From Marsupella aquatica (Eukaryota > Plantae > Marchantiophyta), in the NCBI GenBank assembly GCA_973895155.1, contig OZ316898.1, positions 21,153,292 through 21,217,291 on the forward strand: a stretch of DNA of 64,000 nucleotides, in the 5' to 3' direction. The translations under genes were made by a program, and so were the position numbers. The notes below the pieces were generated by a model that saw only the letters and a program-made list of their open reading frames with translations, had not been told where the DNA came from and ran no database searches. Shown here one piece after another: positions 20,605 through 55,873 of the stretch. Numbering within the stretch: the first letter of the stretch is position 1; every line of letters begins with the position of its first letter.

Positions 20605-20619
20605 GAGCTGAGAGTCAGG

Positions 20620-22391: not shown

Positions 22392-22395
22392 AAAA

Positions 22396-25300: not shown

Positions 25301-27063
25301 TAGTAGTGTCCTGCATTGTTGCCGTTGCCGTTGTTGTTGCCGATGCCGATTTCTTTTCTTTCTCCAGTAGTTTCAGCAGACTCTGCATGCCTGGTTGCTG
25401 CATCGGCAAGTCTTCCTTCCTGGGCCTAAACACCTGCTCGATCGTAGGACTAACAGGTGGTTGAGGCTTCTCAGCCAACGGCCTCGGCGTTGGAGCTTCC
25501 TCGGGTGCCCTTACCTGCAGGGGAAGTACCGGGGCAAAAGTCTGACCTCTGGCATACCGGCACAATAGCGGCATGTGATAGCCCAGCCGCGACACGCTCC
25601 CCATGCCGATTACCTGCTGCTCCTCCTTTAAGATCTTCTTCAATTGGTTGAGGAGGTACCCGTTGTAGTCCCGGCTTGGGTCTGGCCTTTCTGCCAGATA
25701 GACCTGTGCCTTGCCGATCTCTGCCCTCGGCAAGTTACAATGCATGGTCACCCGCAAGAAGTCGATCATCTCTCCTATGTGCGGGTTGGTGCAGGTGTTC
25801 CGGAAGAAGCCATTCTTCGTTGATGGCCCGGGGAACGACCGGAACTCCTTGTCAGGCAAGGTCTTCCTGGTATCAACTTTGGTCTTATTGCCTATCGGCA
25901 AGCCAAACACTTCGGCAATTACCTTGGGAGTAAGATAGAAATCCTTCCCATATATCCTCGTGCAATTGGTCTCGGGTTCCCATGACCCCACGAATTCTAA
26001 TAGGTCTGACTCCGGTACCTCCGGCTTCAGCCATGGTAATCTTACAAAGGCCTCCAAGCCGGATCCGGCCATGAAGCCTTGGTATCTCTTGGTCTGCATG
26101 GCCGTAAAGCATGCATCCTCCTCTCGTGCAAAATGTAGTTGCACCTCCACCGGTAGGGTTGCCGCCCAGCCTTTCCAGGTGTCATCCCTGGTTGGAATGG
26201 CCTTGATGGGATCGACCTCCTCCTCTTCGGCTTCTCCCTGCCTCCTGCTCTGCTGCTCGGCTGGCTTCTTTGGTGCCGCCGACCTCATTCTTTTTGCCGG
26301 GGTGGCTTCATCGTTGACGGCTCCCTTCCTCTTCATCTCTGCTGCCGTGGAGGTTTCTCCTAGCACCGTTGCCTGGGTCCACCTTTCCGTGCTACCCTTT
26401 AATTCCCAGTGTATGTCGTTGCAGTTCTTGATGGCCTCTCGGATGCCGACGACGCTGTCTTTGCAAAACAAAAGATCGTCGAGTTGATTGGAAGTAGGCG
26501 TCCACAGGAACTCATCCTTGATGAGTTCGCCTCCTAAGAAAGCCGTCTTCTGCAGCTCCCACAATCAAGCGAGCTCCTGCCATTCTCGAGCTGCCCTTTC
26601 TGATTCCTTGTCCTCGTAAGTCTTGATGTACTCAGTTGCCCGTTCGAACAGGCATCCCCAGAAATGTGCCGCTTGATTCACGTTGCTCATACCCTCCTTA
26701 GGTCGATCGTCGGTATCTACTCTCTCCCCGAGTGCTTGCCTAAGCAGCTGACAGTAGTTGGCCTCCCGTAGTCGTCTGCCTAGTTCGTGCTCGCAAATGA
26801 GCCACCATCTCCTGCAAGCGCTCCTTACCCCTCCCCTCTGCCGGTCCTTCTTCCCGTTGATCCTTCCTAGCCGCCGACGCTTAACGCGCCCTAACTCTAA
26901 TCGGGTTTTCACCCTCAGCCTTACCTCCGGCCTCTGCCCGGGTTCCATGGTTGCCCCTAATTGTTTATATTTTCCTTGTTTTGTCCCTATACTAAGGTGT
27001 TCCTAGGGTGCCTTCCTGCTTTACCCACTTAACCGGCCGAGTGATTCCTGTCTAGGCATCACA
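22396..27063 (-). repeat. 5' LTR of element B (4668 bp)
   Basis: TGTGATGCC...CGCACCACA, followed by the PBS; colinear with the LTRs of element A. Confidence 0.93.
23316..26948 (-). pseudogene. ORF-X in the 5' LTR of element B (two premature TGA, at 26565 and 23466)
   Basis: ORFs of 127 aa and 1032 aa are in one frame, which continues to the family stop at 23316. Confidence 0.88.
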
Positions 27064-28205: not shown

Positions 28206-29771
28206 GGTCACCAGAGAGCAAGTCCTGAGGTGGGCAGCTAGGAAGGCTGATTGGGACAAGAGAAGTGCCACTAATCGAGAACCTAAGGATCCAGTGGTGA
28301 AACACGGTGTGAAAAGACAGACCTTGATGGACTTGGAGTTGGAGTACTGGAGGGTAATGTACTTAGCCTCCAGCCCCTATATGATTGCAATTTTAGATTG
28401 GAGCAATGGTGGATTGATGTTGGTTACAATCCTCCTATGTGGTTAATTAGTGTTTCTGTTGTTGAATTCTTTGCTTTGTGGAGTGCAGGAATTCGAGCCC
28501 AGCAAACACAATGTGGACGTCATGCACATTGAGAAAAATATTTGTGAGAGCTTGCTGAAGTTCTTGTCGGGTGAGAAAGATACAGGAGCAGTTCGAGCTG
28601 ATATGCAACGGAAGGGGATTCGCCCTCACCTTTGGTTGAAGCCCCATGCAAGCAATCCCAATGTACTTCTCAAGTTCCAAGCTCCCTATGTGTGCACACA
28701 TGAAGAATGGAAGACATTCTTGTATAGATTGAGCTGTCTGAAAGTGCCCTCTGGCTATGCTGGTGCCTTCAAGAAGCATATTACAAAGAATAAACTTGGC
28801 AGTATGAAAACACATGACTACCATGTGTTGATGCAGCACATTCTGCCCCTATGCCTCAGAGGTCTCATGCAGAAACCAGTCCGTAATGTCATTCTTTGAC
28901 TGTGCAATGTATTTTGCCGTATATGTGTGAAAGTGTGGGATCCCCAAGGATTGGAGCAGTTGAAGCAGGATGTTGCTTATGTCCTCTGTGACTTGGAGAT
29001 ATACTGCCCCCTGCTTTCTTTGATGTTATGAGTCATCTCCTAATCCATGTGGTAGAAGAGCTAGGGCAGTATGGGCCAGTCAGTACCAGATGGATGTACC
29101 CTATGGAGCGATACATGAAGTTGTTGAAAGGTCATGTGAGAACATACTACAGGTCAGAGGCTTCCATGGCATTGGGGTACATTAAGGATGAGACATTGGG
29201 GTTCCTAACAGAGTACATGGCTGGGTCTGGTGAAGCTATGACAAGAGTTTGGAAATCTGGTGAAGATGATGGAGTGAGTGGCAAGGTTGTTGAAGGTGTG
29301 GGACGTGCTGTTCAGCTGCTTGTTGCGATTCGAGACAAGGCTCATTCATATGTGCTGGCAAACACAGAGCCTATGCAACCATGGTGGAGGTGAGTGATTG
29401 AATTGACTTGCCTTTGTTGTGATGCTTCTTGTCTGTTCCAAGGGTGATCTTAGGTTGTCATGTGTTGTTTAGACCTAACTATGCCTGTACCTCATATTGC
29501 AGGGAATATGATATGCAAAAAGCTGCACACTCTGGGCAGCAGGATCCCTTCCCACAGTTCGAGCAGTGGATTTGGGTGACAATTCGAGAGCATAGTAGAC
29601 ATCACCCAGATATGGAGAAGGATTTGTATCTTCTATCTGTGCCACCACGATTGTCTATTTTGACCTACAAACGGATCAGAGCTTATGGAAATCATTATCG
29701 AGTGAGGGATGAGCAGGGTGACCATTGTGTATCATATGATTGTGGTTTGATTTCTGTGTTTGAGCAGAGAA
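28206..29771 (+). pseudogene. CACTA transposase (TnpD-like), central part including a DUF4218-type region; spliced, with a stop and a frameshift
   Basis: HNVDVMHIEKNICESLL, KTHDYHVLMQHILP, HLLIHVVEE..YGPVSTRWMYPMERYMK; GT-AG introns at about 28355-28488 and 29390-29502. Confidence 0.9.
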
Positions 29772-32700
29772 TGTGGTGCGTCCCATGGCTCCCTAAACCC
29801 AAGAAACCCCCCAGCTCAAGCCGATTCCCGCAGGTTTCGTGCTTGGCGAGGCCGTTTCCGCGGCTTAGCGGCATGGGACGCTGCTAACCTTCTACTACTA
29901 CTATTAACATTTTACACACATATACTGGACAGATCCTTCATCGGGTCATGAGATACGTAGCCGGCCTAATATAGGCCTTCCCTTGTCTTCCCCTGTCTTC
30001 CCCTCCGTCTTGTTAGGTATGTTTGGATTCCGCCGCCGGAATGATCCCCAATAGGCTTGGTTAAGCCGCTAAGACCTCTCTCAGCTCGACACATCCAACT
30101 ATCACTCCCCTGCTTACTTTCCTTCCTTCTGTTGATGTGGGCACTCTTCACACAAGTTAATGCGACACACAAATAGCAAAATGACTCATTCTGACTGAGT
30201 CATACCATGCACTTGCCATACAAACAGTACATCTCATACACAAGTTCTGCGAACTAAGCCGTGAGGCCAACTCTATTCAGCTCTTAGGCATGAGGAAACA
30301 TGAATATACACAAGGGTCACTGTATGACTAACCGAGAGCTTCTCGTACTACTTGATCCCAGCCCGGCTGGTGCAAACTAAAAACTTGCTAAAGAAGAGGC
30401 CCTGAGCTCCCCGCTGCCCAGGTACTTATCCTGGTAGTGGATCCGCCATTCTTTGCATCGTAAGCCTAATCTACCTGATAGTAATCTACTTGCCCGAATC
30501 TACCTATGTACAGCAAGGCAGGAGCACAAGTGTTGCTCCTACCAGTGGAACCGCAATCCCACTAAGCTAAGTGTCAGGGCCGCTCCTGGTTCTGATCCTA
30601 ATCCTAAACGTGGAGATCCGCGCCCGCCCTGCCCACTCACGCCTCCTCCCTCCACGTCCGCCCTCCCTAAAAGGAACGGCGCCCTTGCACCGTCATGACA
30701 CCGGTGGTGGATCCTCAATGGACGCCCCCAACACTTCCTCCTCAGCCACTGCCGTTGGCCCGCCTACTGACAGATTACCTGCCCTTGACCGAGTCAACTC
30801 TCCATCGGCCTGACTGGGTCCACCTTCGGCTTCAGCCTCGACACCGGCCTCGGCAATACCCATGGCTTCGGCCTCAGCCACTCCCACGGCTTCGGCTTCA
30901 GCCACTCCCTCGGCTTCGGCCTCCCCTTCCCCTAGGGTAGTTGGATCCTTAGCCGTGACCCTGTCTGGGGTCGGTGCTGGGTCTACCTCCTTGATCACCA
31001 CGGCCTGTGAAGTCGTATTACTCCTTGACCCTGAAGGTTTCCGCTTCTTCTTCGTTGGTGGCTCGGCAGCTGGTCCCTTCCCCTTCCCACTTACTTCCGG
31101 CACTGGTGCAGTTGACGCGGCTTGTCCTTCGGCAATTACCACCCCTGGTAACTGGTTTGTCCCAACGGGAGATGGACCTGCTGCAGCTAAGCATTTAAAT
31201 ACTGCGACTTGTTTCTTCAGCCGCTCTGTTTGGTTGTCGGCCCGCCGCTGTAGGTTCTCCATCTTCCTCGTGATTTCCTCCAACTCCTCTTGGGTTTCAT
31301 CCAGGTCCTTACGTGCCCCCTCCAGCTCGTTTTTGGCCTCCTCCTGCTCCCTGTGGGCTTCCTCCAATTCCTTCTTCAAGGTAGCCCTCTCCTCCTGGGT
31401 TGCTCTTAGCTCCTTGTCGAGCTCTGCAATGATGACAGACTCCATCTGGTTCATCTTGGCGTAAGTCTGTTCGAGCATCTCGTCCTTCTCCCTTAGGTCG
31501 GCCTTGAAGCTGGCCGTCAGGGACGCAAGCTCCTGCTGCAGCGCCATAATCCCTTGATAGGATTTCCCTAACTCGACCTCCTTCTGCTCAAGGGCTCCGC
31601 GGATTTTCTCAAGCTCCCCTTTCAACGCCCATTCCTTTCTTTGGGTCTCCGCCATGGCCCGGCTGTTGGCTGTTATGTGGGCCTCCTCTGTATTCTTCAG
31701 CTCTTGCTTCCACTTCTCCCTCTCTTTGATCGTGTCGGCCAACTCTTCCTGCGTCTGAGTCAGTTTATCCTTGATATTCTGATTATCAGCCTGCGCGGCG
31801 TCCAACTGCCCCTGCATGATGTTCAGCTCATGTCGTTTAATCCGCAGTTCATCTTGGGCTTTCTTGGCCGCCCTTAGATCTTCAATCTCGGCTTCCATCC
31901 TCCTAAGCCGCCGAATGACCTCGTCCTTCTTGCTTCTCTCTAAAGCCACCGCTTCTTCTAATTGGTGCTTCTCCAACTGCTCCCTATGAAAAAAGGGTCC
32001 TACCTCCAACTCCTCTCCAAAGATGCCGAGCGCAAGTTCCCCACACATCTCACCATACTCCATGGCTCTATTCTTAGCGTAGGTGGAGTAAGTAGAAGTG
32101 ATCGGCATCGCCCATCGTGGCCTCTGCTCCCACGCCGTCCTGCGGATCTCTTCAATCGTGGCTAGAGGTTTGCTTCCTTTTTCGGCTAGCCGCCTGATGT
32201 CCTCCGGCCAATCTCCTCCTGGTAAATCCTTTTCCTTAGCCAGGGCGGCCTCTTCCTCCTGCTTGATTCGCTCCTGAAATTCCTGCACCGTCTGTTTTAT
32301 GCCGTCGAAGCTCGGGGGAGCAACATCTGGTGGGGGAGACTCAGGGCTACTCTGCTGGTTGGGGTCCCCTCGCACTACCCTTGGAAGTGTGGGGACAAAC
32401 CGGCCACAGGTCCTTACTCCTGGAACGTGATGGTCCGACCCATAGCCGGAATTATCAGGGCTGTAGTCCTCCACTGCCTCCTCTACCTCTTGGACGTCCG
32501 GCTTCTCCCTCTCCTCTTCCTCGGTAGGAGCTTCAGGCAATTCTGCCTCAGATTCGGAGGTTGAGGTTCCCACGTACATTCGAACACCTGGCTTGGATTC
32601 CGGCCTGATTCTCTTCTTGTCTCCAGCAAAGGGGTTTTCTCTTGTGAGCCGGTGTAGGCCTACCTCTGTAGTAGTGTCCTGCATTGTTGCCGTTGCCGTT

Positions 32701-34431
32701 GTTGTTGCCGATGCCGATTTTTTTTCTTTCTCCAGTAGTTTCAGCAGACTCTGCATGCCTGGTTGCTGCATCGGCAAGTCTTCCTTCCTGGGCCTAAACA
32801 CCTGCTCGATCGTAGGACTAACAGGTGGTTGAGGCTTCTCAGCCAACGGCCTCGGCGTTGGAGCTTCCTCGGGTGCCCTTACCTGCAGGGGAAGTACCGG
32901 GGCAAAAGTCTGACCTCTGGCATACCGGCACAACAGCGGCATGTGATAGCCAAGCCGTGACACGCTTCCCATGCCGATTACCTGCTGCTCCTCCTTTAAG
33001 ATCTTCTTCAATTGGTTGAGGAGGTACCCGTTGTAGTCCCGGCTTGGGTCTGGCCTTTCTGCCAGATAGACCTGTGCTTTGCCGATCTCTGCCCTCGGCA
33101 AGTTACAATGCATGGTCACCCGCAAGAAGTCGATCATCTCTCCTATGTGCGGGTTGGTGCAGGTGTTCCGGAAGAAGCCATTCTTCGTTGATGGCCCGGG
33201 GAACGACCGGAACTCCTTGTCAGGCAAGGTCTTCCTGGTATCAACTTTGGTCTTATTGCCTATCGGCAAGCCAAACACTTCGGCAATTACCTTGGGAGTA
33301 AGATAGAAATCCTTCCCATATATCCTCGTGCAATTGGTCTCGGGTTCCCATGACCCCACGAATTCTAATAGGTCTGACTCCGGTACCTCCGGCTTCAGCC
33401 ATGGTAATCTTACAAAGGCCTCCAAGCCGGATCCGGCCATGAAGCCTTGGTACTTCTTGGTCTGCATGGCCGTAAAGCATGCATCCTCCTCCCGTGCAAA
33501 ATGTAGTTGCACCTCCACCGGTAGGGTTGCCGCCCAGCCCTTCCAGGTGTCATCCCTGGTTGGAATGGCCTTGATGGGATCGACCTCCTCCTCTTCGGCT
33601 TCTCCCTGCCCCTTGCTCTGCTGCTCGGCTGGCTTCTTTGGTGTCGCCGACCTCGTTCTTTTTGCCGGGGTGGCTTCATCGTTGACGGCCCCCTTCCTCT
33701 TCATCTCTGCTGCCGTGGAGGTTTCTCCTAGCACCGTTGCCTGGGTCCACCTTTCCGTGCTACCCTTTAATTCCCAGTGTATGTCGTTGCAGTTCTTGAT
33801 GGCCTCTCGGATGCCGACGACGCTGTCTTTGCAAAACAGAAGATCGTCGAGTTGATTGGAAGTAGGCGTCCACAGGAACTCGTCCTTGATGAGTTCGCCT
33901 CCTAAGAAAGCCGTCTTCTGCAGCTCCCACAATCAAGCGAGCTCCTGCCGTTCTCGAGCTGCCCTTTCTGACTCCTCGTCCTCGTAAGTCTTGATGTACT
34001 CAGTTGCCCGTTCGAACAGGCATCCCCAGAAATGTGCCGCTTGATTGACGTTGCTCATACCCTCCTTAGGTCGATCGTCGGTATCTACTCTCTCCCTGAG
34101 TGCTTGCCTAAGCAGCTGATAGTAGTTGGCCTCCCGTAGTCGTCTGCCTAGTTCGTGCTCGCAAATGAGCCACCATCTCCTGCAAGCGCTCCTTACCCCT
34201 CTCCTCTGCCGGTCCTTCTTCCCGTTGATCCTTCCTAGCCGCCGACGCTTAACGCGCCCTAACCCTAATCGGGTTTTCACCCTCAGCCTTACCTCCGGCC
34301 TCGGCCCGGGTTCCATGGTTGCCCCTAATTGTTTATATTTTCCTGGTATTGTCCCTATACTAAGGTGTTCCTAGGGTGCCTTCCTGCTTTACCCACTTAA
34401 CCGGTCGAGTGATTCCTGTCTAGGCATCACA
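29772..34431 (-). repeat. 3' LTR of element A (4660 bp)
   Basis: Directly follows the PPT; colinear with 40652-45313 at offset 10880/10882. Confidence 0.96.
30693..34316 (-). CDS. ORF-X, LTR-encoded ~1207-codon protein (one internal TGA at 33933 in this copy)
   Basis: In-frame ORFs of 127 aa and 1079 aa; the other LTR reads CGA at that codon; start context CAACCATGG; ~300-aa coiled coil. Confidence 0.88.
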
Positions 34432-37400
34432 TAGCTCCCCACTTAATTGTGAAGCGTCCTCGCGAACAACTTCATCTTCGTCCATATAGTATTTCTTGAG
34501 GCGGTCATAATGGATGCGAACTGGATATACCTCTCCCGTAATGTTGGCCAATTGCACGGAGCCATTGGGGAACATCATGGTTACTCTAAAGGGTCCTAAC
34601 CAGCGAGTGTAAAGCTTTCCTGGAAACCTATTATACCTACTGTCATAAAGTAGCACAAGATCACCGGTATGAATACTAACTACTTTTAACCTTTTATCAT
34701 ACTGCTGCTTCATGATATTCTGTCTATATTCTACTCTCTCGGCTGAAATCATTCTCGCTTCCTCTAAAGCTTCTAACCTATATTCTCGCTCCTTTAGGCT
34801 CTCCTCCGCTGAGGCTCTTTCCTCAATTGTAACTTGAAATGTCGGTATCTCAAGTTGCATGGGTACCAGGGCTTCTTGTCCAAAGGTTAAGAAGAAGGGT
34901 GTATGACCGGTAGTGGATTTATAGGCAAGATTGTAAGCAAAAACAGCAGCAAACAATTTATCATCCCAATCGAGTTTGTTCTGAGCTACTGTCTTGTTCA
35001 ATATCTTTCCTATGATTCCGTTTGCTCGTTCTGTCAACCCGTTTGCCTTTGGATGGTAGGGAGTAGTAGGCCTATGTTTAACTAAATACTGCTCATTTAA
35101 ACGACTAATTATATCATTCAAAAAATGGGTTCCTCTATCACTAACTAATTCTAGGGGTGCTCCATACCTGGTGAAGATCTGCTCATACATGAATCTAGCC
35201 GTAGTAATTGCATCATCCTTCATTGTTGGTCTGGCCTCTACCCATTTAGTTGCATAATCCGTAGCCAGGATTATGTACTTGTTCCGTCGAGGGTGGGTCA
35301 GTGGTTTCAGAGGTCCAATGTAATCAATACCCCACTTCTCGAATGGTGCCAGAGGTAGAATAGGGTGCAGTGGATGCCTGGTGGACGCCCTTGGTCCTCC
35401 CGCTCGTTGACAAGGATCGCATTGTTTGATAAACTGATAGACATCTTTGTGCAAGGTGGGCCACCAGTAACCGGCATTTAATATCTTCTTAGACGTGGTT
35501 ACTGGGGCAAAATGTCCTCCGGCCTCCTCTCCATGCATGGCCCGTAGGACTCGTTTTACCTCTCTCTTTTCCAAACACCTTTGAATCGTGCCGTTGATTC
35601 CATGCTTGTGCAGTATGCCTTTAATGCACTGATACTGTCTGACCTTCCGCACAAAGACTGCGGCTTGCTCTCGGCTTAATCCTGGCTGTAATCTGGAAGT
35701 GCTGAGAAATTGTAAAATCTCAGGGTACCATGTACCAGCTATCTCCACAACGAATAGCTCCTCGTCGGGGAATCGATCATCGATGCAATCCGTGGCAGGT
35801 TTACCTGTGATCCTTGAAAAGAAGTCGGCATTGGCATGTAACTTTCCCGGCTTGATCCTCAGCTCATAGTCAAACTCCTGTAATAGCAAAATCCATCTTG
35901 CTACTCTGCCTGTAAGGTCCGGCTTATTGACTAGGTACTTCAAACTTTCATGATCAGTATGAAAGATTACCTTGTACCCTAGTAAATAATGCCTAAACTT
36001 TTTACAAGAATAAATGACTCCTAATGCTTCTCTTTCCGTGGTAGAGTAGTTCCGTTCGGCATCGGCAAGCTGACGGCTTGCGAAGTATATGGGATGGTCC
36101 CTTCCTTTCTCATCCAACTGACTTAGTACTGAGCCAATACAGAAGCCCGAGACATCTACAAAAACATGAAAATCTTTGTTCCAGTCCGGTGCTATCATGA
36201 CTGGGGCCTCTACTAACATCTGCTTCAATTCTACCACCGCTGTGACTCGTTCGGGTGTGGGTTCGAAGTCTGCTCCTGCCTTGAGCATATTGGTTAATGG
36301 TAAAGCCAGCTTGGCAAAATCCTTGATGAACCGGCGATAGTAACCAATGCATCCCAAGAAGGATCTTACATCCTTTATGTTCTTAGGTTGCATGATATCT
36401 AGCCATACTGCTAGCTTACCTTTGTCAATCTCAATGCCCTTCCTTGATACCTTGTGACCTAGTAGCACCCCCTCGGTTACTGCAAAAAAACATTTATCTG
36501 GGTGTAACTTGAGACCCACCTCTCTACATCTCATGAAGGTTTTCCTGAGGTATTTAGCATGTTTCGATGCCTTCCCGAATACTGCAAAGTCATCAATGAA
36601 GATTTCCATGAACTTTCTCAAGTAATCATGAAAAATGTTCACCATTAATCGTTGGAACATAGCTGGTGCGTTGCAGAGTCCAAACGGCATACGATTGAAG
36701 ACATAGATCCCCCATTCCGTGATGAAGGCCGTCTTGATTTGGTCTTCCTGCCGAATCCTGATTTGGTTATAACCAGAGTATCCATCCATGAATGAATATA
36801 GTTCATGACTGGCTACCATGTCTAGTACCATATCAGTAAACGGTAAAGGAAAATGGTCTTTTAATGTTGCTTCATTCAGCTTCTTGTAATCCTGACAAAC
36901 CCGGATCTTGGGTTTACCATCGGGTCCAGCTTTCTTGGGAACTATCACAATTGGAGACACCCAGTCTGAATGCAGGACTGGAGTGATGAATCCAGCTTCC
37001 ACTAGTTTGTCGATTTCTGCTTTGACCAGCAGGGAATACTTCAGGTTCATCCTTCGAATTGGTTGTCGAAATGATTTGGCTCCTAACATGAGATCAATTT
37101 GATGTTCCCCTAGTGTTGGATCTACTCCCTTTAGATCTTGGTGACTCCATGCAAACACATCCTGAAATTCAATCAATAAGTCACTGATCTCTTTCTCGAG
37201 CTCAGGTGCTAGGTTTCTCCCTAAGTTCAGTTCTCTTCCCTCTCCTAAGTCGAGCTTCCGATATTGCCGTGCTTGGATCATATTAATCTGCTTCTTCAAA
37301 TTCGGGTCCAGTTCGGCTTCCAGTCTCTCTAATCTCATACCTCCATAAACTGGGATCTCGGCTGGACTAGCCGAGTCGGTCCCTTCCTTGGTGTCCATAG

Positions 37401-37662
37401 ATTGTCCCCTTACCGGTCTATTTGGTTTTGAATTAGTGGTCGGCTCCCCTTCCTGCCTTGGCTCTAGATCGTGTCTGTCCATCTCATCCACCTCTTGCTC
37501 CTGAGAGTTAGGCCGCTGTGCTCTCTCGGCTTCTAATAGGGCCTCAATTTGTTTTGCCCTCGTAATCGGCTTGTATGCCGATCCCTTGGTATTTAATTTC
37601 TTGCCGATGATCGATGGCGTTGTGGACCCCGTCGGCTCTGCCACAACGCCTGCAGAAAATCC
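34420..37662 (-). CDS. pol: RT-RNase H-integrase, intact frame, entered by a predicted -1 frameshift; no chromodomain or extra RNase H seen
   Basis: DHFPLPF, FMDGYSGYNQI, MPFGLCNAPA, FIDDF, FVDVS...NYSTTERE, H-x6-H...CDPCQ, WGIDYIGP, SDRGTHF, ANGLTER, WLGPF; stop codon lies inside the LTR. Confidence 0.95.
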   Translation of the reverse strand, partial: GFSAGVVAEPTGSTTPSIIGKKLNTKGSAYKPITRAKQIEALLEAERAQRPNSQEQEVDEMDRHDLEPRQEGEPTTNSKPNRPVRGQSMDTKEGTDSASPAEIPVYGGMRLERLEAELDPNLKKQINMIQARQYRKLDLGEGRELNLGRNLAPELEKEISDLLIEFQDVFAWSHQDLKGVDPTLGEHQIDLMLGAKSFRQPIRRMNLKYSLLVKAEIDKLVEAGFITPVLHSDWVSPIVIVPKKAGPDGKPKIRVCQDYKKLNEATLKDHFPLPFTDMVLDMVASHELYSFMDGYSGYNQIRIRQEDQIKTAFITEWGIYVFNRMPFGLCNAPAMFQRLMVNIFHDYLRKFMEIFIDDFAVFGKASKHAKYLRKTFMRCREVGLKLHPDKCFFAVTEGVLLGHKVSRKGIEIDKGKLAVWLDIMQPKNIKDVRSFLGCIGYYRRFIKDFAKLALPLTNMLKAGADFEPTPERVTAVVELKQMLVEAPVMIAPDWNKDFHVFVDVSGFCIGSVLSQLDEKGRDHPIYFASRQLADAERNYSTTEREALGVIYSCKKFRHYLLGYKVIFHTDHESLKYLVNKPDLTGRVARWILLLQEFDYELRIKPGKLHANADFFSRITGKPATDCIDDRFPDEELFVVEIAGTWYPEILQFLSTSRLQPGLSREQAAVFVRKVRQYQCIKGILHKHGINGTIQRCLEKREVKRVLRAMHGEEAGGHFAPVTTSKKILNAGYWWPTLHKDVYQFIKQCDPCQRAGGPRASTRHPLHPILPLAPFEKWGIDYIGPLKPLTHPRRNKYIILATDYATKWVEARPTMKDDAITTARFMYEQIFTRYGAPLELVSDRGTHFLNDIISRLNEQYLVKHRPTTPYHPKANGLTERANGIIGKILNKTVAQNKLDWDDKLFAAVFAYNLAYKSTTGHTPFFLTFGQEALVPMQLEIPTFQVTIEERASAEESLKEREYRLEALEEARMISAERVEYRQNIMKQQYDKRLKVVSIHTGDLVLLYDSRYNRFPGKLYTRWLGPFRVTMMFPNGSVQLANITGEVYPVRIHYDRLKKYYMDEDEVVREDASQLSGELCDA
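34432..34445 (-). other. Polypurine tract of element A
   Basis: TAAGTGGGGAGCTA abuts TGTGATG; the same sequence is at 63767-63780. Confidence 0.88.
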
Positions 37663-38852
37663 ACTGTCCCTGCTACTGCTCCCCACTTAGCCGTTTCATC
37701 CAATTGGTCTACATCCTTTACTTCCTCCGGAATTGCAGCTAAAAAGGTGGATTCTATTGTAAAGCAGTCCTCGACCTCTTCGTCTTCTTCTTCCAAGTCA
37801 CCTTCCATTGGTTCTTGCCATAATCTGCTGGGGGGTACCTCTGGTCCAAAGACGCCTTCTTCGGTTAGGTTAGTGAGGCATTCTAACCAACGTACTTCAT
37901 CGGCTGACTCCAGTCCACTATCGTACCCATCTACTTCCCTTATGCTTTTCCTACGGTCATCCTTAGTGTCCCAGGATACCGTGATAGAGGGGGTCCCGAA
38001 AGTGAACTGCTTTTTACCCCAATCTTCTATTACCTCGGCTAGGTACAGCCATGGCCTACCAATCAATAGCCGGAATGACGTAGGATTTACCGGCTTCATT
38101 ACTACATAGTTAATGCTAAAGAAGATACCTCCTATCTCTGTCTTGATGCCGGTTAACACTCCCGTCGGAATGACCTGATATCCATTGGCCATGTTCAACA
38201 CTCTTCCAGTCATCTCCGGTGTTAGACCCCACCCTTTTGCTGTTGAATCAATCATAATACATACCCCTGATCCTCCATCGATGGGTACCCGTAGTAATAA
38301 TTCTCCTTGAATCATTAATGGTAATGCTGGGGCTCCTTGATCTTCTTCTATCATTAGTACGTCGGATCTGGTTGCTACCTTGGGTAATCTCGGCTTGCCG
38401 AGAATAGCCTTCCTTAATTGCTTCCGGAAGTACGGGCTATTTTTCAATAGTTGACCTACTGTTGCCGAGACTCTAGATTCTAGTACATCTTTAGCCAGGT
38501 CATAGGGAACAATCGGCTTCTCTTCTGGTGGTGTTTCCGTCTTGGATTCGGCCAGTTTTGCCACGCTAGTCTCCACAGCTGTTGGGTCTTCCGAAGCAAA
38601 CAATGCTTTTGCTCGTTTTACATCCTTGGCAATGGCTTCGGTATTCTCCAGGGTTTCTAATTCTCTTAGTTGTTCCTTAACACTAGCCGTAACAGAGGGG
38701 TAGAACAACTTAGGATGATCTCGATTGAAGTCGCTATCTTGTGAAGGATTGGTTTCATTGGTGGGCTCATGGCTTACCTGTATTGCCGGAGCCCTCCCTT
38801 CTCCTTCTGTTGATGTTGACGAAGAGTCGATCCTTTCCTCTGTAACCTTCCC
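37593..38852 (-). CDS. Aspartic protease region, in frame with gag behind one TAA
   Basis: VPIDGGSGVCIM and LLIGRPWL; the frame is open from 38852. Confidence 0.85.
   Translation of the reverse strand, partial: GKVTEERIDSSSTSTEGEGRAPAIQVSHEPTNETNPSQDSDFNRDHPKLFYPSVTASVKEQLRELETLENTEAIAKDVKRAKALFASEDPTAVETSVAKLAESKTETPPEEKPIVPYDLAKDVLESRVSATVGQLLKNSPYFRKQLRKAILGKPRLPKVATRSDVLMIEEDQGAPALPLMIQGELLLRVPIDGGSGVCIMIDSTAKGWGLTPEMTGRVLNMANGYQVIPTGVLTGIKTEIGGIFFSINYVVMKPVNPTSFRLLIGRPWLYLAEVIEDWGKKQFTFGTPSITVSWDTKDDRRKSIREVDGYDSGLESADEVRWLECLTNLTEEGVFGPEVPPSRLWQEPMEGDLEEEDEEVEDCFTIESTFLAAIPEEVKDVDQLDETAKWGAVAGTVDFLQALWQSRRGPQRHRSSARN
37603..37662 (-). promoter_or_regulatory. Predicted -1 ribosomal frameshift signal (G GAU UUU plus pseudoknot)
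   Basis: GGATTTT, 5-nt spacer, stem GGCGTTGTGG/CCACAACGCC, loop GCCGA pairs with downstream TCGGC; conserved at 60549-60608. Confidence 0.8.
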
Positions 38853-40582
38853 TTAATTTTTGGCCAGCCCATCCCACCTTTCCTTCCTTCTGGTAGATCG
38901 AGTAGAGACCCGGTAGCAATCATGATCTAAATCCTCCTCTGAGAAGGTTGATAGGGCTTCGGCCTCATCATCAGATGGTACGAACTCTGCCTCGGCATCC
39001 TCTTGCCATCCTAGTTCGATGTGGTTGATTTGAACTCCTCCGGGGGTAGTACCTGGCGGTAAGATCTTGATCGGCAAAAGCTTATGATTTGCGGCCAGGC
39101 CTGCCAACCAAGTAGGACATTGCCCTAGCATATGACCTTCCTGTCGGCATCCCATACATAGCTGAGCTGGTTGTCCATCACCCTGTTTGCGTGCATTCGG
39201 GCATTCTCTAGCAAAATGGCCAGGTTGACCATAATTATAGCACGCCGCAAATCTTTGCACATTCGGCCTAGGAGGTACTGACGGGTTCTGAATAATCCGA
39301 GGATACATCTCTCCTGGATTGTTCCTTAACCCTGACCACAGAGATGCAGGTCTGTTGGATAGGTCTCGTGCTCCAGTCTCACTGATGCCGAAAACACTAT
39401 CAGCGGCATCTCCCAAAAAGTACTCTACTTCTCCCTGACATGGTCTGATCTCGGCCACATGCCGAACATGATTAGTATTAAGCTTAGGACACGCATCTTT
39501 ATGGTGTCCGGTTTTATAACATAAGGCACACCATACAGAGCTATCCTCCTGTACTACCTTCTTTGGTTTTACCTCTGCAATGATAGCCTTAAGTTGCTCG
39601 GTAAGGGCTACGATGTTATCTGGTGGCTTAGCCTCCATCTTGACTTTCGTCTTCCCTCTCCTTCTGCCCTTCCTTTTCCTAGTTTTTTCTTCTTCAGAAC
39701 TAGAAGATAACCCCTCTTGCTACTCCCACTATCCGAGCTTGACTTATCACTTCTAGACTTCTTGGAATGTTTCTTCTTCTTATCTTTTTTCTTATGGGGT
39801 GATCCCTCCTCTGATGAGGAACTCTCAGACTTAAGCTGTTTCTTCCGGCTTGTGATATCTGCATTAATGTATAATTGAATATCCTTAATTGCTTCGGCTA
39901 AAGTCTCCGGGTTCTCCTTCCTAATTGCAAAACTCATCTTCTGTGGCAAAGCATTCACCAACCATTGAAGTTGCATACCTTCAGATGCATTGGTCTTTGT
40001 ACGTCTTACCAGTTTCTGAAAGCGTTGCAAGAACTTCCTGAAGGATTTGTTCTCCTTGAACCGAAGTTGTCCCAACTTCAGCACTGCTAGTTCTGAAGTT
40101 CCAATGGGTCGAAACTCCTTAACAAAGAGTGTTTTGAAGATATCCCAGATGGCTTGATCTTCCACATCTAATGCTCTGTACCAAGGCCTAGCCTCACCCT
40201 TGAACAGGCCGGGAAGAATCTGCATCTTGATGGCCGATTCTCCATTTGCTGCAGCGGTTCCCTCGAAATCATCCAACCATTCGTCCGGATCCTCATCTCC
40301 TCTCCCATGAAATGCTTTGTAATGTATGCGCGACCGCTGGCTCAATCTGGTCCCTGGCCTCTCGTCTGGCCGTGCCTCTGGTTCCCCCATGTCGGTTGGA
40401 GACTCACTTCTCCTTACCGACTCTTCCTCTGGTATGTCTTCTTCGACGCCACTTCCAGTTTCGGAGCTACCAGCTCTTTCTGCCCCTCTCAGTCGCTGTG
40501 TATCATGCCACCCGGCGAGCTGCTGCAGTCGAGCTCTCTCCCGTTGAATCACTCTTTCTTCCCTCGGCGTAAGGTCAGTCAT
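38853..40582 (-). pseudogene. gag: Gag of element A, 1-nt frameshift near 39710
   Basis: ORFs of 324 aa and 261 aa together match the continuous gag of element B. Confidence 0.9.
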
Positions 40583-40629
40583 TACCTACGCTTCCGTTCT
40601 AACTTCATATCTCACGGCTTAAGAAATGC

Positions 40630-40647
40630 CCCCTCCATCTAGCGCCA
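40630..40647 (-). other. Primer binding site of element A, probably tRNA-Asn(GUU)
   Basis: LTR...CA TTTT TGGCGCTAGATGGAGGGG. Confidence 0.75.
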
Positions 40648-40651
40648 AAAA

Positions 40652-43600
40652 TGTGGTGCGTCCCATGGCTCCCTAAACCCAAGAAACCCCCCAGCTCAAG
40701 CCGATTCCTGCAGGTTTCGTGCTTGGCGAGGCCGTTTCCGCGGCTTAGCGGCATGGGACGCTGCTAACCTTCTACTACTACTATTAACATTTTACACACA
40801 TATACTGGACAGATCCTTCATCGGGTCATGAGATACGTAGCCGGCCTAATATAGGCCTTGCCTTGTCTTCCCCTGTCTTCCCCTCCGTCTTGTTAGGTAT
40901 GTTTGGATTCCGCCGCCGGAATGATCCCCAATAGGCTTGGTTAAGCCGCTAAGACCTCTCTCAGCTCGACACATCCAACTATCACTCCCCTGCTTACTTT
41001 CCTTCCTTCTGTTGATGTGGGCACTCTTCACACAAGTTAATGCGACACACAAATAGCAAAATGACTCATTCTGACTGAGTCATACCATGCACTTGCCATA
41101 CAAACAGTACATCTCATACACAAGTTCTGCGAACTAAGCCGTGAGGCCAACTCTATTCAGCTCTTAGGCATGAGGAAACATGAATATACACAAGGGTCAC
41201 TGTATGACTAACCGAGAGCTTCTCGTACTACTTGATCCCAGCCCGGCTGGTGCAAACTAAAAACTTGCTAAAGAAGAGGCCCTGAGCTCCCCGCTGCCCA
41301 GGTACTTATCCTGGTAGTGGATCCGCCATTCTTTGCATCGTAAGCCTAATCTACCTGACAGTAATCTACTTGCCCGAATCTACCTATGTACAGCAAGGCA
41401 GGAGCACAAGTGTTGCTCCTACCAGTGGAACCGCAATCCCACTAAGCTAAGTGTCAGGGCCGCTCCTGGTTCTGATCCTAATCCTAAACGTGGAGATCCG
41501 CGCCCGCCCTGCCCACTCACGCCTCCTCCCTCCACGTCCGCCCTCCCTAAAAGGAATGGCGCCCTTGCACCGTCACGACACCGGTGGTGGATCCTCAATG
41601 GACGCCCCCAACACTTCCTCCTCAGCCACTGCCGTTGGCCCGCCTACTGACAGATTACCTGCCCTTGACCGAGTCAACTCTCCATCGGCCTGACTGGGTC
41701 CACCTTCGGCTTCAGCCTCGACACCGGCCTCGGCAATACCCACGGCTTCGGCCTCAGCCACTCCCACGGCTTCGGCTTCAGCCACTCCCTCGGCTTCGGC
41801 CTCCCCTTCCCCTAGGGTAGTTGGATCCTTAGCCGTGACCCTGTCTGGGGTCGGTGCTGGGTCTACCTCCTTGATCACCACGGCCTGTGAAGTCGTATTA
41901 CTCCTTGACCCTGAAGGTTTCCGCTTCTTCTTCGTTGGTGGCTCGGCAGCTGGTCCCTTCCCCTTCCCACTTACTTCCGGCACTGGTGCAGTTGACGCGG
42001 CTTGTCCTTCGGCAATTACCACCCCTGGTAACTGGTTTGTCCCAACGGGAGATGGACCTGCTGTAGCTAAGCATTTAAATACTGCGGCTTGTTTCTTCAG
42101 CCGCTCTGTTTAGTTGTCGGCCCGCCGCTGTAGGTTCTCCATCTTCCTCGTGATTTCCTCCAACTCCTCTTGGGTTTCATCCAGGTCCTTACGTGCCCCC
42201 TCCAGCTCGTTTTTGGCCTCCTCCTGCTCCCTGTGGGCTTCCTCCAATTCCTTCTTCAAGGTAGCCCTCTCCTCCTGGGTTGCTCTTAGCTCCTTGTCGA
42301 GCTCTGCAATGATGACAGACTCCATCTGGTTCATCTTGGCGTAAGTCTGTTCGAGCATCTCGTCCTTCTCCCTTAGGTCGGCCTTGAAGCTGGCCGTCAG
42401 GGACGCAAGCTCCTGCTGCAGCGCCATAATCCCTTGATAGGATTTCCCTAACTCGACCTCCTTCTGCTCAAGGGCTCCGCGGATTTTCTCGAGCTCCCCT
42501 TTCAACGCCCATTCCTTTCTTTGGGTCTCCGCCATGGCCCGGCTGTTGGCTGTTATGTGGGCCTCCTCTGTATTCTTCAGCTCTTGCTTCCACTTCTCCC
42601 TCTCTTTGATCGTGTCGGCCAACTCTTCCTGCGTCTGAGTCAGTTTATCCTTGATATTCTGATTATCAGCCTGCGCGGCGTCCAACTGCCCCTGCATGAT
42701 GTTCAGCTCATGTCATTTAATCCGCAGTTCATCTTGGGCTTTCTTGGCCGCCCTTAGATCTTCAATCTCGGCTTCCATCCTCCTAAGCCGCCGAATGACC
42801 TCGTCCTTCTTGCTTCTCTCTAAAGCCACCGCTTCTTCTAATTGGTGCTTCTCCAATTGCTCCCTATGAAAAAAGGGTCCTACCTCCAACTCCTCTCCAA
42901 AGATGCCGAGCGCAAGTTCCCCACACATCTCACCATACTCCATGGCTCTATTCTTAGCGTAGGTGGAGTAAGTAGAAGTGATCGGCATCGCCCATCGTGG
43001 CCTCTGCTCCCACGCCGTCCTGCGGATCTCTTCAATCGTGGCTAGAGGTTTGCTTCCTTTTTCGGCTAGCCGCCTGATGTCCTCCGGCCAATCTCCTCCT
43101 GGTAAATCCTTTTCCTTAGCCAGGGCGGCCTCTTCCTCCTGCTTGATTCGCTCCTGAAATTCCTGCACCGTCTGTTTTATGCCGTCGAAGCTCGGGGGAG
43201 CAACATCTGGTGGGGGAGACTCAGGGCTACTCTGCTGGTTGGGGTCCCCTCGCACTACCCTTGGAAGTGTGGGGACAAACCGGCCACAGGTCCTTACTCC
43301 TGGAACGTGATGGTCCGACCCATAGCCGGAATTATCAGGGCTGCAGTCCTCCACTGCCTCCTCTACCTCTTGGACGTCCGGCTTCTCCCTCTCCTCTTCC
43401 TCGGTAGGAGCTTCAGGCAATTCTGCCTCAGATTCGGAGGTTGAGGTTCCCACGTACATTCGAACACCTGGCTTGGATTCCGGCCTGATTCTCTTCTTGT
43501 CTCTAGCAAAGGGGTTTTCTCTTGTGAGCCGGTGTAGGCCTACCTCTGTAGTAGTGTCCTGCATTGTTGCCGTTGCCGTTGTTGTTGCCGATGCCGATTT

Positions 43601-45313
43601 CTTTTTTCTTTCTCCAGTAGTTTCAGCAGACTCTGCATGCCTGGTTGCTGCATCGGCAAGTCTTCCTTCCTGGGCCTAAACACCTGCTCGATCGTAGGAC
43701 TAACAGGTGGTTGAGGCTTCTCAGCCAACGGCCTCGGCGTTGGAGCTTCCTCGGGTGCCCTTACCTGCAGGGGAAGTACCGGGGCAAAAGTCTGACCTCT
43801 GGCATACCGGCACAACAGCGGCATGTGATAGCCAAGCCGCGACACGCTTCCCATGCCGATTACCTGCTGCTCCTCCTTTAAGATCTTCTTCAATTGGTTG
43901 AGGAGGTACCCGTTGTAGTCCCGGCTTGGGTCTGGCCTTTCTGCCAGATAGACCTGTGCTTTGCCGATCTCTGCCCTTGGCAAGTTACAATGCATGGTCA
44001 CCCGCAAGAAGTCGATCATCTCTCCTATGTGCGGGTTGGTGCAGGTGTTCCGAAAGAAGCCATTCTTCGTTGATGGCCCGGGGAACGACCGGAACTCCTT
44101 GTCAGGCAAGGTCTTCCTGGTATCAACTTTGGTCTTATTGCCTATCGGCAAGCCAAACACTTCGGCAATTACCTTGGGAGTAAGATAGAAATCCTTCCCA
44201 TATATCCTCGTGCAATTGGTCTCGGGTTCCCATGACCCCACGAATTCTAATAGGTCTGACTCCGGTACCTCCGGCTTCAGCCATGGTAATCTTACAAAGG
44301 CCTCCAAGCCGGATCCGGCCATGAAGCCTTGGTACTTCTTGGTCTGCATGGCCGTAAAGCATGCATCCTCCTCCCGTGCAAAATGTAGTTGCACCTCCAC
44401 CGGTAGGGTTGCCGCCCAGCCCTTCCAGGTGTCATCCCTGGTTGGAATGGCCTTGATGGGATCGACCTCCTCCTCTTCGGCTTCTCCCTGCCCCTTGCTC
44501 TGCTGCTCGGCTGGCTTCTTTGGTGCCGCCGACCTCGTTCTTTTTGCCGGGGTGGCTTCATCGTTGACGGCCCCCTTCCTCTTCATCTCTGCTGCCGTGG
44601 AGGTTTCTCCTAGCACCGTTGCCCGGGTCCACCTTTCCGTGCTACCCTTTAATTCCCAGTGTATGTCGTTGCAGTTCTTGATGGCCTCTCGGATGCCGAC
44701 GACGCTGTCTTTGCAAAACAGAAGATCGTCGAGTTGATTGGAAGTAGGCGTCCACAGGAACTCGTCCTTGATGAGTTCGCCTCCTAAGAAAGCCGTCTTC
44801 TGCAGCTCCCACAATCGAGCGAGCTCCTGCCGTTCTCGAGCTGCCCTTTCTGACTCCTCGTCCTCGTAAGTCTTGATGTACTCAGTTGCCCGTTCGACCA
44901 GGCATCCCCAGAAATGTGCCGCTTGATTGACGTTGCTCATACCCTCCTTAGGTCGATCGTCGGTATCTACTCTCTCCCCGAGTGCTTGCCTAAGCAGCTG
45001 ACAGTAGTTGGCCTCCCGTAGTCGTCTGCCTAGTTCGTGCTCGCAAATGAGCCACCATCTCCTGCAAGCGCTCCTTACCCCTCTCCTCTGCCGGTCCTTC
45101 TTCCCGTTGATCCTTCCTAGCCGCCGACGCTTAACGTGCCCTAACCCTAATCGGGTTTTCACCCTCAGCCTTACCTCCGGCCTCGGCCCGGGTTCCATGG
45201 TTGCCCCTAATTGTTTATATTTTCCTGGTTTTGTCCCTATACTAAGGTGTTCCTAGGGTGCCTTCCTGCTTTACCCACTTAACCGGTCGAGTGATTCCTG
45301 TCTAGGCATCACA
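40652..45313 (-). repeat. 5' LTR of element A (4662 bp)
   Basis: About 25 substitutions (counted by eye) and one 2-nt indel versus the 3' LTR. Confidence 0.96.
41573..45198 (-). pseudogene. ORF-X in the 5' LTR of element A (+2 frameshift near 43600; stops at 42713 and 42110)
   Basis: ORFs of 552, 283, 195 and 149 aa tile the protein. Confidence 0.9.
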
Positions 45314-45808
45314 GAGAACCTTTGAAGAATAGAGGGGTGGATGAAGATGGGTTACGTGGGGGAGTTGATCGACATTTGGGTGTTGAATTATGGTAACACA
45401 AGTGTCCCAGTGATATTGATGAAGGGATCATGGGTGAAATCAGAGTGGCAGAGACCAAGGGCCACCATGAAGCGTGATCATGATGGGTTCTTGTTGGCCA
45501 ATTTTAGGTCCAGAGTACCAAAATGGTCTGAGCCTTTTGTTTTCCCTAGCCAAGTTGAACAGGCTTTCTTTGCAGATGTGGAGGAGTCACATGGCTGGAG
45601 GGTGGTATGCCATAGCCAAGCACGGAACAGGCGGATGGATGGAAGTAAAGAAGAGTTCAGTTTGGATGACCATGCTGCATTCGAGCATCCTAGTCACGAG
45701 ACTGTACTTCCAACTCGGGCAGGGACTGACTACATCCCCTTAACATTGAGAGAGACATATGATGAACCTGGGCAAATGGAATATGATGAGGTTGATGATT
45801 TGCAATAG
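45314..45808 (+). pseudogene. CACTA transposase C-terminal part (DUF4216-type)
   Basis: GYVGELIDIWVLNY...VILMKGSWV...EPFVFPSQVEQAFF...GWRVV. Confidence 0.85.
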
Positions 45809-54983: not shown

Positions 54984-55873
54984 AAACCCTCCCTGCCCAC
55001 TATTCAGGGATATGCCTGGAGCAAAACCTACGGGAATCGGCTTGTGCAGGGCCAATTTTGCGGCTTAGCGGCATGGGACGCTGCTAACTCATTACTACTA
55101 ACCAATTAGCATTTTACACACATATACTAGACAGATCCTTCATCGGGTCATGAGATACGTAGCCGGTCTAATCTAGGCCTTCCCTGATCTTCCTCTCCTT
55201 GTCTGCTTTAGGTATGTTTGGATTCCGCCGCTAGAATGATCCCCATCTGGCTTGGGTAAGCCGCTAAGACCTCTCTCAGCTCGACACATCCAACTCTCAC
55301 TCCCTTGTTTACTTCCCTTCTTTGTATTAGTTGATGTGGGCACTCTTCACACAAGTTAATGCGACACACAAATCGCAAAATGACTCCTTCTGACTGAGTT
55401 ATACCATCCATACAAATAGTACATCTCATACACAAGCTCTGCGAACTAAGCCGTGAGGCCAACTCTATTCAGCTCTTAGGCATGAGGAAACATGAATATA
55501 CACAAGGGTCACTGTATAACTAACTAAGAGCTTCTCTTACTACTTGATCCCAGCCCTGCTGGTGCACTAAAAACTTGCTAAGGAAGAAGGCCCTGAACTC
55601 CCCGCCGCCCAGGTACTTATCCTGGCAGTGGATCCACCCAATTCCTTGCAGCGTAACCCTAATCTATCCTAACTGTAATCTACCTATGTACAGCGAGGCA
55701 GGAGCACAAGTGTCACTTTTACCAGTGGATCCATAATCCCACTAAGCTAAGTGTCAGGGCCACCTCCATGTTCTGATCCTAATTCTAAACTTGGAGATAT
55801 GAGCCCGCCCTGCCCACTCACGCCTCCTCCCTCCACGTCCGCCCTCCCTTAAAGGAGCGGCCCTCCACCACCA

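Follow-up and report, generated by a model that had tools for sequence, protein, structure and literature searches.

A selected accessory gene inside both long terminal repeats of an Athila-like Ty3/Gypsy retrotransposon from the liverwort Marsupella aquatica

The window analyzed here, a 64-kb stretch of Marsupella aquatica DNA, contains a young insertion of an Athila-like Ty3/Gypsy element whose long terminal repeats (LTRs) each carry a copy of a large accessory gene, ORF-X, which is under purifying selection. Our best overall explanation, held with middling confidence, is of an Athila-like element with 4.66-kb LTRs in which a selected and likely self-promoted ORF-X encodes a predicted nuclear DNA-binding protein with a VANC/plant-mobile-domain fold and a coiled coil, which likely counters silencing.

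RESULTS

The element and its LTRs

The element lies on the minus strand, as do all features given below unless stated otherwise, between copies of a target-site duplication (TSD), GAGAA (left, 29767..29771; right, 45314..45318), in decayed transposase-like sequence that we take, from its motif, to be CACTA-like. Alignment of the 5′ LTR (4,662 nt; 40652..45313) with the 3′ LTR (4,660 nt; 29772..34431) showed 25 substitutions (22 transitions and 3 transversions) and one 2-nt indel (99.4% identity; K2P, 0.0054). Both LTRs have the termini TGTGATG..CACCACA, with GAGAA at either flank. The primer-binding site (PBS) (TGGCGCTAGATGGAGGGG; 40630..40647), presumably tRNA-Asn-like, is separated from the 5′ LTR by four T residues; no tRNA gene was found in the 64-kb window. 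The polypurine tract (PPT) with its conserved upstream motif, termed type A here (34432..34468), overlaps the last pol codons and ends 3 nt from the 3′ LTR. The pol frame crosses the PPT and has its stop codon at LTR nt 10 to 12, leaving no spacer after pol.

Between the LTRs lie gag (Retrotrans_gag and zf-CCHC; 38853..40585), a protease frame (37593..38852), and an open RT-RNase H-integrase frame of 1,088 codons (34420..37686). The gag-pol region of this copy is damaged: gag is frameshifted, and a stop lies between it and protease. Pfam gave no match for the protease frame; its assignment is supported by tblastn to relatives and by what we presume to be the protease motif. The gene order gag, PR, RT, RH, INT inside TG..CA LTRs with PBS, PPT, and TSD is that of Ty3/Gypsy elements. 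Pfam detected a single RH and neither an extra RNase H nor a chromodomain on pol; about 100 amino acids separate RH from the integrase zinc domain, with nothing beyond integrase.

Further related copies lie in the window. LTR B (22396..27063; 95% identical) carries an ORF-X with two stops and leads into the PBS and gag of an element that has lost internal sequence. A sister-family LTR (55040..60215; ∼83% identical) is decayed and interrupted and contains ORF-X, and a sister-family pol on the plus strand (60216..64000) is followed by the same PPT and LTR start. Across the window, the LTR begins at the identical nucleotide in five cases and ends at the identical nucleotide in four, with differing flanks. 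The LTR limits that the initial annotation had drawn from the TG/CA ends, TSD, PBS, and PPT are thus borne out by both the LTR alignment and independent copies. Rearranged copies are abundant in the region, which might raise the suspicion that the 4.66-kb repeat is an artefact of assembly, or that a local segmental duplication surrounds an element with short LTRs. This is extremely improbable, given that the 25 differences between the two LTRs are biased toward transitions, the TSD is undamaged, both termini are common to independent copies, and the same layout is found in the sister family and in distant relatives. Contigs from four sequencing runs (organism labels A to D) span the entire stretch, and the PBS is joined to the LTR end in one X1 contig. 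The summed depth on ORF-X was 2.9 to 4.1 times that on gag/protease and close to that on the non-coding LTR end (ratio, 0.75 to 1.42), a weak indication since depth is not copy number.

ORF-X is under purifying selection

In the sense of gag-pol, ORF-X runs from an ATG at LTR nt 116 to a stop at about nt 3737 (1,207 codons, 78% of the LTR). The 3′ LTR copy (30693..34316) has a stop at codon 128, and the 5′ LTR copy (41573..45198) is frameshifted near nt 1712 and interrupted by stops at codons 828 and 1029, so the breaks lie at non-overlapping sites, as initially described. The codon-128 stop is a minority of 0 to 3% in the contigs of the four runs. The initial annotation had also proposed a complete gene of ∼1,207 codons in each LTR. 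Its frame, extent, and sense hold, whereas no intact full-length copy is present in the window (those of both main LTRs, of LTR B, and of the sister are broken) and the start is probably elsewhere. Compared with the sister, codons 1 to 86 have 4 synonymous and 29 non-synonymous changed codons, with no protein-level constraint, whereas codons 87 to 127 have 9 and 5, respectively, and are constrained. Because constraint sets in there, the gene probably starts at Met87 (34058), which would give 1,121 codons and 72% of the LTR.

The dN/dS ratio of ORF-X was 0.40 (0.30 to 0.53) versus LTR B and 0.23 (0.19 to 0.29) versus the 5′ part of the sister, compared to 0.99 and 1.47 to 1.48 in shifted-frame controls. 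It fell to 0.11 (0.06 to 0.19) in the core domain, equal to that of pol (0.11). All 5 indels within ORF-X versus LTR B, and 7 of 10 versus the decayed sister, had lengths divisible by three, against 0 of 10 in the non-coding 3′ part of the sister. The non-coding tail, the final 920 nt of the LTR (29772..30692), is ∼90% identical to the sister family, above the expectation from synonymous sites, and likely contains core LTR signals.

The ORF-X protein has a conserved globular domain (213 amino acids folded; 32892..33530), a predicted coiled coil at residues ∼785 to 1040 (31197..31964), basic nuclear localization signal (NLS)-like motifs at residues 217 and 1086, and disordered linkers. Relatives carry homologous ORFs at the env position, which would suit an env-like membrane protein, but no transmembrane segment was found (maximum 19-residue hydropathy, 0.86). 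For that reason we regard ORF-X as not env-like and an env function as very unlikely.

The core domain resembles VANC21 in its predicted fold

The structure prediction that had been proposed for ORF-X produced a confident model of the core domain (AlphaFold2; pLDDT, 89.9; pTM, 0.87). Of 48,161 chains compared with it, four reached Z 2; the best was VANC21 bound to DNA (9lnk; chain 9lnk_A) with Z 8.0, a borderline value since the aligner rates Z 7 to 8 as typical for a best match, and the next reached 2.2. With this single aligner, 201 of 213 residues were aligned with VANC21 at an rmsd of 4.4 and 7% identity. Foldseek with the same model returned no match at E 0.001, VANC21 was absent from its rows, and none of its 177 chains reached Z 2 upon realignment to this model. 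A first fold from 26 sequences (pLDDT, 66) had given no match in PDB, BFVD, or a wide search. PDB sequence searches with ORF-X yielded only chance or coiled-coil matches, a DUF1985 profile did not match alignments of 26 and 17 ORF-X family members (homology may be too remote), and no PMD Pfam match was found for ORF-X.

VANC, MAIN, and PMD proteins have a common fold, and coiled-coil oligomerization has been predicted for VANC and Athila-domain proteins (PMC13547354; bioRxiv 2024.09.27.615353). VANC binds motifs of its element and strips DNA methylation (PMC5735166). Its targets are short motifs repeated in non-coding regions. ORF-X resembles VANC21 of VANDAL21 (PDB 9lnk; PMC5735166) and the MAIN/MAIL plant mobile domain proteins in its predicted core fold, its coiled coil, and its nature as a transposon-encoded accessory protein. 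It differs from them in the 7% identity, the missing DUF1985/PMD match, its host (an LTR retrotransposon, not a Mutator-like element), and the absence of any repeated target motif found in its family, and its fold is known from prediction. No 7- or 8-mer was enriched in the non-coding LTR parts of the window family (89 to 100 of 100 shuffles equal). CCGGA-type 7-mers were enriched in relatives L004, L006, L010, L014, and L018 (0 to 1 of 100 shuffles), all from the other clade with LTR-borne ORFs described below.

A shared fold with VANC21 does not by itself show a function. Since the modelled core fold resembles VANC21, the ORF-X protein is likely a DNA-binding factor that helps the element to escape host silencing. 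Tentatively, it might instead be a replication accessory (a particle scaffold, a nuclear import factor, or an integration tether). This would fit the basic motifs, the disordered linkers, and the length of the coiled coil; no repeated target motif was found in the window family, and roles like those of retroviral accessory genes have been proposed for plant extra ORFs in a review (PMC7264820). Against it, constraint in ORF-X is strongest in a compact domain, and the one structure that this domain notably matches is an anti-silencing factor bound to DNA.

Relatives carry the ORF internally or downstream of the PPT

The nearest named relatives of the element are from liverworts: the RT region is 69 to 70% identical in Calypogeia and 54 to 60% in Riccia, compared to 40 to 51% in named angiosperm proteins. 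A word-based homologue search with the N-terminal region of ORF-X found none among 2,439 candidates, and phmmer found 23. Two scans of viral contigs revealed no relatives. The metagenome set comprised 68 loci, ∼50 of them distant and outside the layout classification. In a first layout (3 metagenome loci), the accessory ORF is internal and the LTR-proximal PPT lies 3′ of it. In a second (7 loci), this PPT comes directly after pol and the gene lies downstream: the type-A PPT is within ∼100 nt of the pol stop in 9 of the 68 loci, and an ORF of the same domain family follows it in 7 of those 9; LTR limits are inferred here because no relative contig contains two LTRs. L006 has a PPT, a 1,082-codon ORF, and a PBS in succession across 4.55 kb, and L010 and L014 have matching termini (TGTGGGA..TCCCACA). 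Since related loci likewise have the PPT directly after pol and the gene downstream, the layout is not restricted to one family. ORF-X is a member of a bryophyte-type accessory-ORF family whose position varies among relatives, some carrying it internally and others 3′ of the LTR-proximal PPT. The proposal that an accessory gene from the env position now lies 3′ of the PPT is accordingly upheld as to family (that of the internal ORFs of L001 and L008) and place (inside both LTRs), though not as to an env-like nature.

L001 and L008, in which the ORF lies between pol and LTR, have purine tracts both 3′ of pol and 3′ of the ORF. This arrangement would fit an origin in which the role of the old PPT passed to one located 5′ of an internal ORF, extending U3 across the gene. 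Within the LTR, the post-pol tract is matched best 11 nt past the ORF-X stop, in four window copies and the sister. We consider this route, which the initial annotation had implied, unlikely: the match is not significant (58 of 1,000 shuffles), nor is it of the right type, the type-A LTR-proximal motif being found immediately 3′ of pol but at no site in the LTR, with no relic after ORF-X. The groupings of ORF-X subtype and integrase also disagree, as the ORF-X subtype groups with L008-type ORFs and the integrase of the same element groups elsewhere. This mismatch suggests that a promoter-ORF cassette may have been captured by recombination. In a quick integrase tree (36 rows, after exclusion of 35 short ones), a three-way fork joins the window family with the internal-ORF clade and the other LTR-ORF clade, and one or two origins of the layout are both compatible with it.

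Placement of ORF-X within the LTR

A TATA-like box (TATAAA; LTR nt 95; 34332..34337), kept in three LTR starts, is a candidate ORF-X promoter. Such a box also lies 5′ of the ORF in L007, L009, L010, L014, and the internal-ORF relative L008; in 6 of the 11 relatives checked, none was found upstream of it. ORF-X would be transcribed from its own promoter at the 5′ edge of the LTR (nt 95, with Met87 as the start) and would sit in an enlarged U3, with genomic RNA starting within the conserved last 920 nt. It would then be copied once from the 3′ end of the RNA and duplicated into both LTRs in each round, an expressible copy would persist in solo LTRs, and its protein would act on element chromatin against silencing.

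Alternatively, the nt-95 box could be the sole promoter, with a U3 of ∼125 nt and ORF-X in R/U5. The LTR would then be a self-contained gene (promoter, ORF, and poly(A)), and gag-pol would be expressed by read-through and splicing across ORF-X. We hold this to be possible, on the unlikely side. It would account for the conserved TATA-like box, splice-site-like sequences at nt 139 (donor-like GAG|GTAAGG) and nt 4044 (acceptor-like TCTTCTTTAG), and the 3′-UTR-like region downstream of ORF-X; in L007, L009, L010, and L014, the TATA lies 330 to 460 nt into the LTR, ahead of the ORF, as in an ordinary LTR promoter. One observation counts against the enlarged-U3 placement. The stretch at LTR nt ∼3900 to 4250 is U-rich, bears TGTA, and resembles a 3′ end; as it lies upstream of the sole downstream TATA-like site (nt 4459), it fits a short R poorly. 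The R/U5 placement, however, requires minus-strand strong-stop DNA of ∼4.5 kb and unspliced genomic RNA that reads past its own poly(A) signal, demands that follow from established reverse-transcription logic, and the similar TATA before the internal ORF of L008 points to an ORF-specific promoter.

DISCUSSION

Coding sequence that lies in or overlaps the LTR and is duplicated by reverse transcription is familiar from MMTV sag, HIV nef, and foamy virus bel2. These are genes of vertebrate retroviruses with ORFs of a few hundred codons, whereas ORF-X has ∼1,100 codons and an unrelated protein. Among plant elements, the Tekay members Retrosat2, RIRE3, and RIRE8 likewise combine LTRs of >3 kb with an extra ORF, but they are chromoviruses whose ORF0 lies upstream of gag-pol and is handled apart from the LTR (PMC3485330). 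Our literature search, with most subscription papers outside its coverage, found no earlier description of plant retrotransposons with ORFs in their LTRs.

The element resembles Athila/OTA Ty3/Gypsy elements, as PMC6317226 and PMC7264820 describe them, in being a non-chromovirus with a 5-bp TSD, no extra RNase H, and a large accessory ORF weakly linked to Transposase_32/ATHILA ORF-1; LTRs of up to ∼5 kb are known there. Their extra ORFs are internal, whereas here the ORF is inside both LTRs with no spacer after pol. REXdb defines Athila by a PBS for tRNA-Asp, -Asn, or -Ala and an extra ORF between pol and PPT (PMC6317226), but ORF-X lies 3′ of the PPT. We assign the element as Athila-like only, on its domains and TSD. 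Tat/Ogre/Retand elements differ in their additional RNase H, and Phygy/Selgy in their 4-bp TSD. As to the Transposase_32 link, ORF-X did not match the PF20167 (Transposase_32) or PF03078 (ATHILA ORF-1) profiles, and the L008 ORF matched at 21.4 bits (E, 2.5e-4; 160 of 177 positions), below the curated cut-off of 45. Atlas scores from the accessory ORF to this family were 0.87 to 0.88, hhalign to a 3-sequence profile gave 4 to 6%, and an atlas search without PF20167/PF03078 gave no usable match.

The layout runs counter to the working assumption of non-coding plant LTRs and internal extra ORFs, and annotation pipelines would overlook LTR-borne genes or label solo LTRs as host genes. An LTR gene of ∼1,100 codons outlasts solo-LTR formation, the host's main route of retrotransposon deletion. 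The VANC21 fold match offers a testable hypothesis for the long-open role of Athila-type accessory ORFs. More speculatively, a VANC-like, sequence-specific anti-silencing gene may have entered the LTR in a bryophyte gypsy clade, possibly more than once, in which case every insertion and solo LTR would carry a self-promoted copy that could derepress the family in trans, and Athila-like "env-position" ORFs would be anti-silencing factors older than eudicot VANC. If true, a fold described as eudicot-specific in VANC would extend to a retrotransposon of a non-vascular plant.

ORF-X lies within the terminal repeats of an Athila-like element

Self-comparison of the window revealed a direct repeat (4667 columns, 99.4% identity) that represents the LTRs of the main element, an Athila-like Ty3/Gypsy retrotransposon at 29772-45313 on the minus strand. 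Both LTRs (40652-45313 and 29772-34431, minus strand) start with TGTGATG, end with CACCACA, and are flanked by GAGAA; within the window, five LTR starts and four LTR ends coincide, with different flanks. These ends, flanks, and common termini bear out the 4.66-kb limits proposed in the initial annotation, and an assembly artefact is a very unlikely source of the repeat. The pair differs by 22 transitions, 3 transversions, and one 2-nt indel (K2P 0.0054). The internal region (6220 nt) contains gag and frames for protease (PR) and RT-RH-INT, the latter open over 1088 codons; this pol frame reads across the PPT to a stop at LTR nt 10-12 and therefore leaves no internal spacer for an extra ORF. 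The accessory gene ORF-X lies inside the terminal repeat and is therefore duplicated along with the LTR. At 27063/27064 and 60215/60216, deleted and inverted family fragments (19577-28205 and 54520-60216) meet exactly at LTR termini, which suggests insertion into same-family copies.

Among named RT relatives, the closest came from Calypogeia fissa (69-70%), followed by Riccia sorocarpa (54-60%). Of the 10 ORF-X homologs that were looked up, 4 are named proteins of Calypogeia, so that a liverwort is the probable host. By the criteria of the REXdb table (PMC6317226), the 5-bp TSD and the lack of an extra RNase H and of a chromodomain are consistent with Athila and rule out Tat, Phygy, and Selgy. 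Nine runs in seven studies contain part of this sequence; depth was taken from four, all as contigs, which showed a high-copy, variable family. Depth over ORF-X, which is no copy number, was 2.9-4.1x that over gag/protease, weakly favoring an LTR location; no consistent depth step was found at the ORF-X end in these contigs.

The PR and RT frames are offset by -1 in the main element (37662-37595, minus strand) and in the sister, a related decayed family (60546-60615, plus strand), with a conserved GGAUUUU heptamer. The heptamer of the main element is followed after 5 nt by a 10-bp stem (z -2.98), and pseudoknot pairing seems possible on visual inspection; the best structure of the sister differs. 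This is a candidate site for a programmed frameshift. Just upstream, 11 nt identical to the PPT core (37688-37678, minus strand; one mismatch in the sister) may be a central PPT, or a chance match, as they are also coding.

ORF-X is under purifying selection from Met87

The initial annotation described a 1207-codon gene. The frame is present at that length, counted from LTR nt 116, but codons 1-86 showed no constraint and selection was detected only from Met87 onward. This fits a predicted gene of 1121 codons starting at Met87, with a leader of ∼250 nt and a TATA-like box at nt 95. The 3' copy is interrupted by a single stop and the 5' copy by two stops plus a frameshift; a third LTR copy (LTR B, 22396-27063) has two stops and the sister LTR (55040-60215) several. 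Pairwise dN/dS was 0.40 against LTR B and 0.23 and 0.44 against the 5' and 3' parts of the sister, with shifted-frame controls of 0.99 and 1.47-1.48; that of the core domain was 0.11, like pol. The value between the element's own LTRs, 0.56 (interval 0.22-2.43), comes from a pair too similar to inform. An identical codon-128 stop occurs in three of the five window copies (33933-33935, 26565-26567, and near 59680 in the sister LTR), although it accounts for 0-3% of contig depth in the four runs; recurrent mutation or local conversion might be involved.

The predicted fold of the core domain resembles an anti-silencing protein

Besides a 200-residue globular domain, the ORF-X protein has a long coiled coil, basic motifs, and linkers that are acidic and proline-rich; sequence analysis found no hydrophobic segment. 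A core-domain model from 26 sequences was of poor quality and gave no structural match, and one from 59 sequences reached a pLDDT of 89.9. Its best match among 48,161 chains was VANC21, the anti-silencing protein of VANDAL21, with its target DNA (Z 8.0, borderline by the search tool's own guidance; rmsd 4.4; 201 of 213 residues at 7% identity), followed by a runner-up at Z 2.2. This borderline match spans the whole core domain and lies far above the remaining chains; the VANC21 chain was absent from the Foldseek matches to the same model. Transposase_32 and ATHILA clusters in a protein atlas (scores 0.87-0.88) and a below-threshold Transposase_32 match to the ORF of a metagenome relative (L008) agree weakly with this fold.

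VANC is described as binding short element motifs and removing methylation (PMC5735166). A fold common to VANC, MAIN, and PMD (plant mobile domain) and coiled-coil oligomerization predicted for VANC and Athila-domain proteins have been reported (PMC13547354; bioRxiv 2024.09.27.615353); the passage in question does not connect the domain of Athila with the fold of VANC. The repeated target motifs expected of a VANC-like factor were not found, relative to shuffles, in the noncoding LTR parts of the main element's family, and were found in those of the other LTR-ORF clade. There (L004, L006, L010, L014, and L018), CCGGA-containing 7-mers were strongly enriched (0-1 of 100 shuffles), which makes them candidate targets of the accessory protein in these elements. 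On balance, we slightly favor an anti-silencing or related chromatin action for the ORF-X protein.

Relatives and origin of the LTR-borne layout

A metagenome scan with integrase C-termini yielded 68 loci. Iterated profiles placed the ORF-X domain family 3' of pol in L001, L002, L004 to L010, L014, and L018, as two subtypes (alignment probability 98.9%). A conserved PPT motif, here called type A, indicates where the LTR begins; LTR limits of relatives were deduced because two LTRs never occur on one contig. Type A follows an internal ORF in L001 (a complete, circularly permuted element with an LTR of ∼1 kb), L008, and L020, and directly follows pol in the window element and nine loci, seven of which have the ORF of this domain family downstream. 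L006 runs over 4.55 kb from PPT through TG, a 1082-codon ORF, and a noncoding tail to the PBS, with no second type-A motif across that span; L010 and L014 have inverted termini that correspond to the post-pol start. Two further ORFs of the domain family belong to other elements. One, at 49156-51600 (plus strand), is open over 814 codons and groups with L001, L002, and L005; the other lies at 7882-9181 (minus strand). The 812-codon internal ORF preceding type A in L020 (2663-5098) matched neither the ORF-X domain nor Pfam and is taken as another accessory gene.

The LTR-borne layout may have two origins, since a quick integrase tree did not settle the branching order among the window family, the clade with internal ORFs, and the other LTR-ORF clade, and the two LTR-ORF groups have different ORF subtypes. 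Had the PPT simply switched, a type-A relic would be expected 3' of ORF-X; none is present, and we consider such a switch improbable. Capture of a promoter-ORF cassette behind a pre-existing LTR start would fit better.

ORF-X would have its own promoter at the 5' edge of the LTR. Genomic RNA would start within the final 920 nt, which are conserved (90% identity to the sister), and would carry a single ORF-X copy at its 3' end. Priming of plus-strand synthesis at the PPT would then put the 4.66 kb into both LTRs. A single promoter, with ORF-X in R/U5 and gag-pol made by splicing, has real sequence hints in the LTR in its favor, yet we regard it as rather unlikely; ORF-X is probably in U3.

Retroviruses have LTR-borne ORFs. 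For plant elements, reviews assign extra ORFs, where they treat them, to the internal region (PMC7264820; PMC6317226), and Retrosat2, as presented in PMC3485330, has its ORF0 upstream of gag-pol, unlike LTR-borne ORF-X. The check for a prior description that the initial annotation had called for found no plant LTR-borne gene in the literature searched, nor is one described in passages of PMC12885004, PMC1142308, PMC11728184, PMC11358816, and bioRxiv 2026.09.17.752431. The LTR-borne layout of ORF-X is real and probably an undescribed variant of plant gypsy architecture, and it comes with a testable functional lead.
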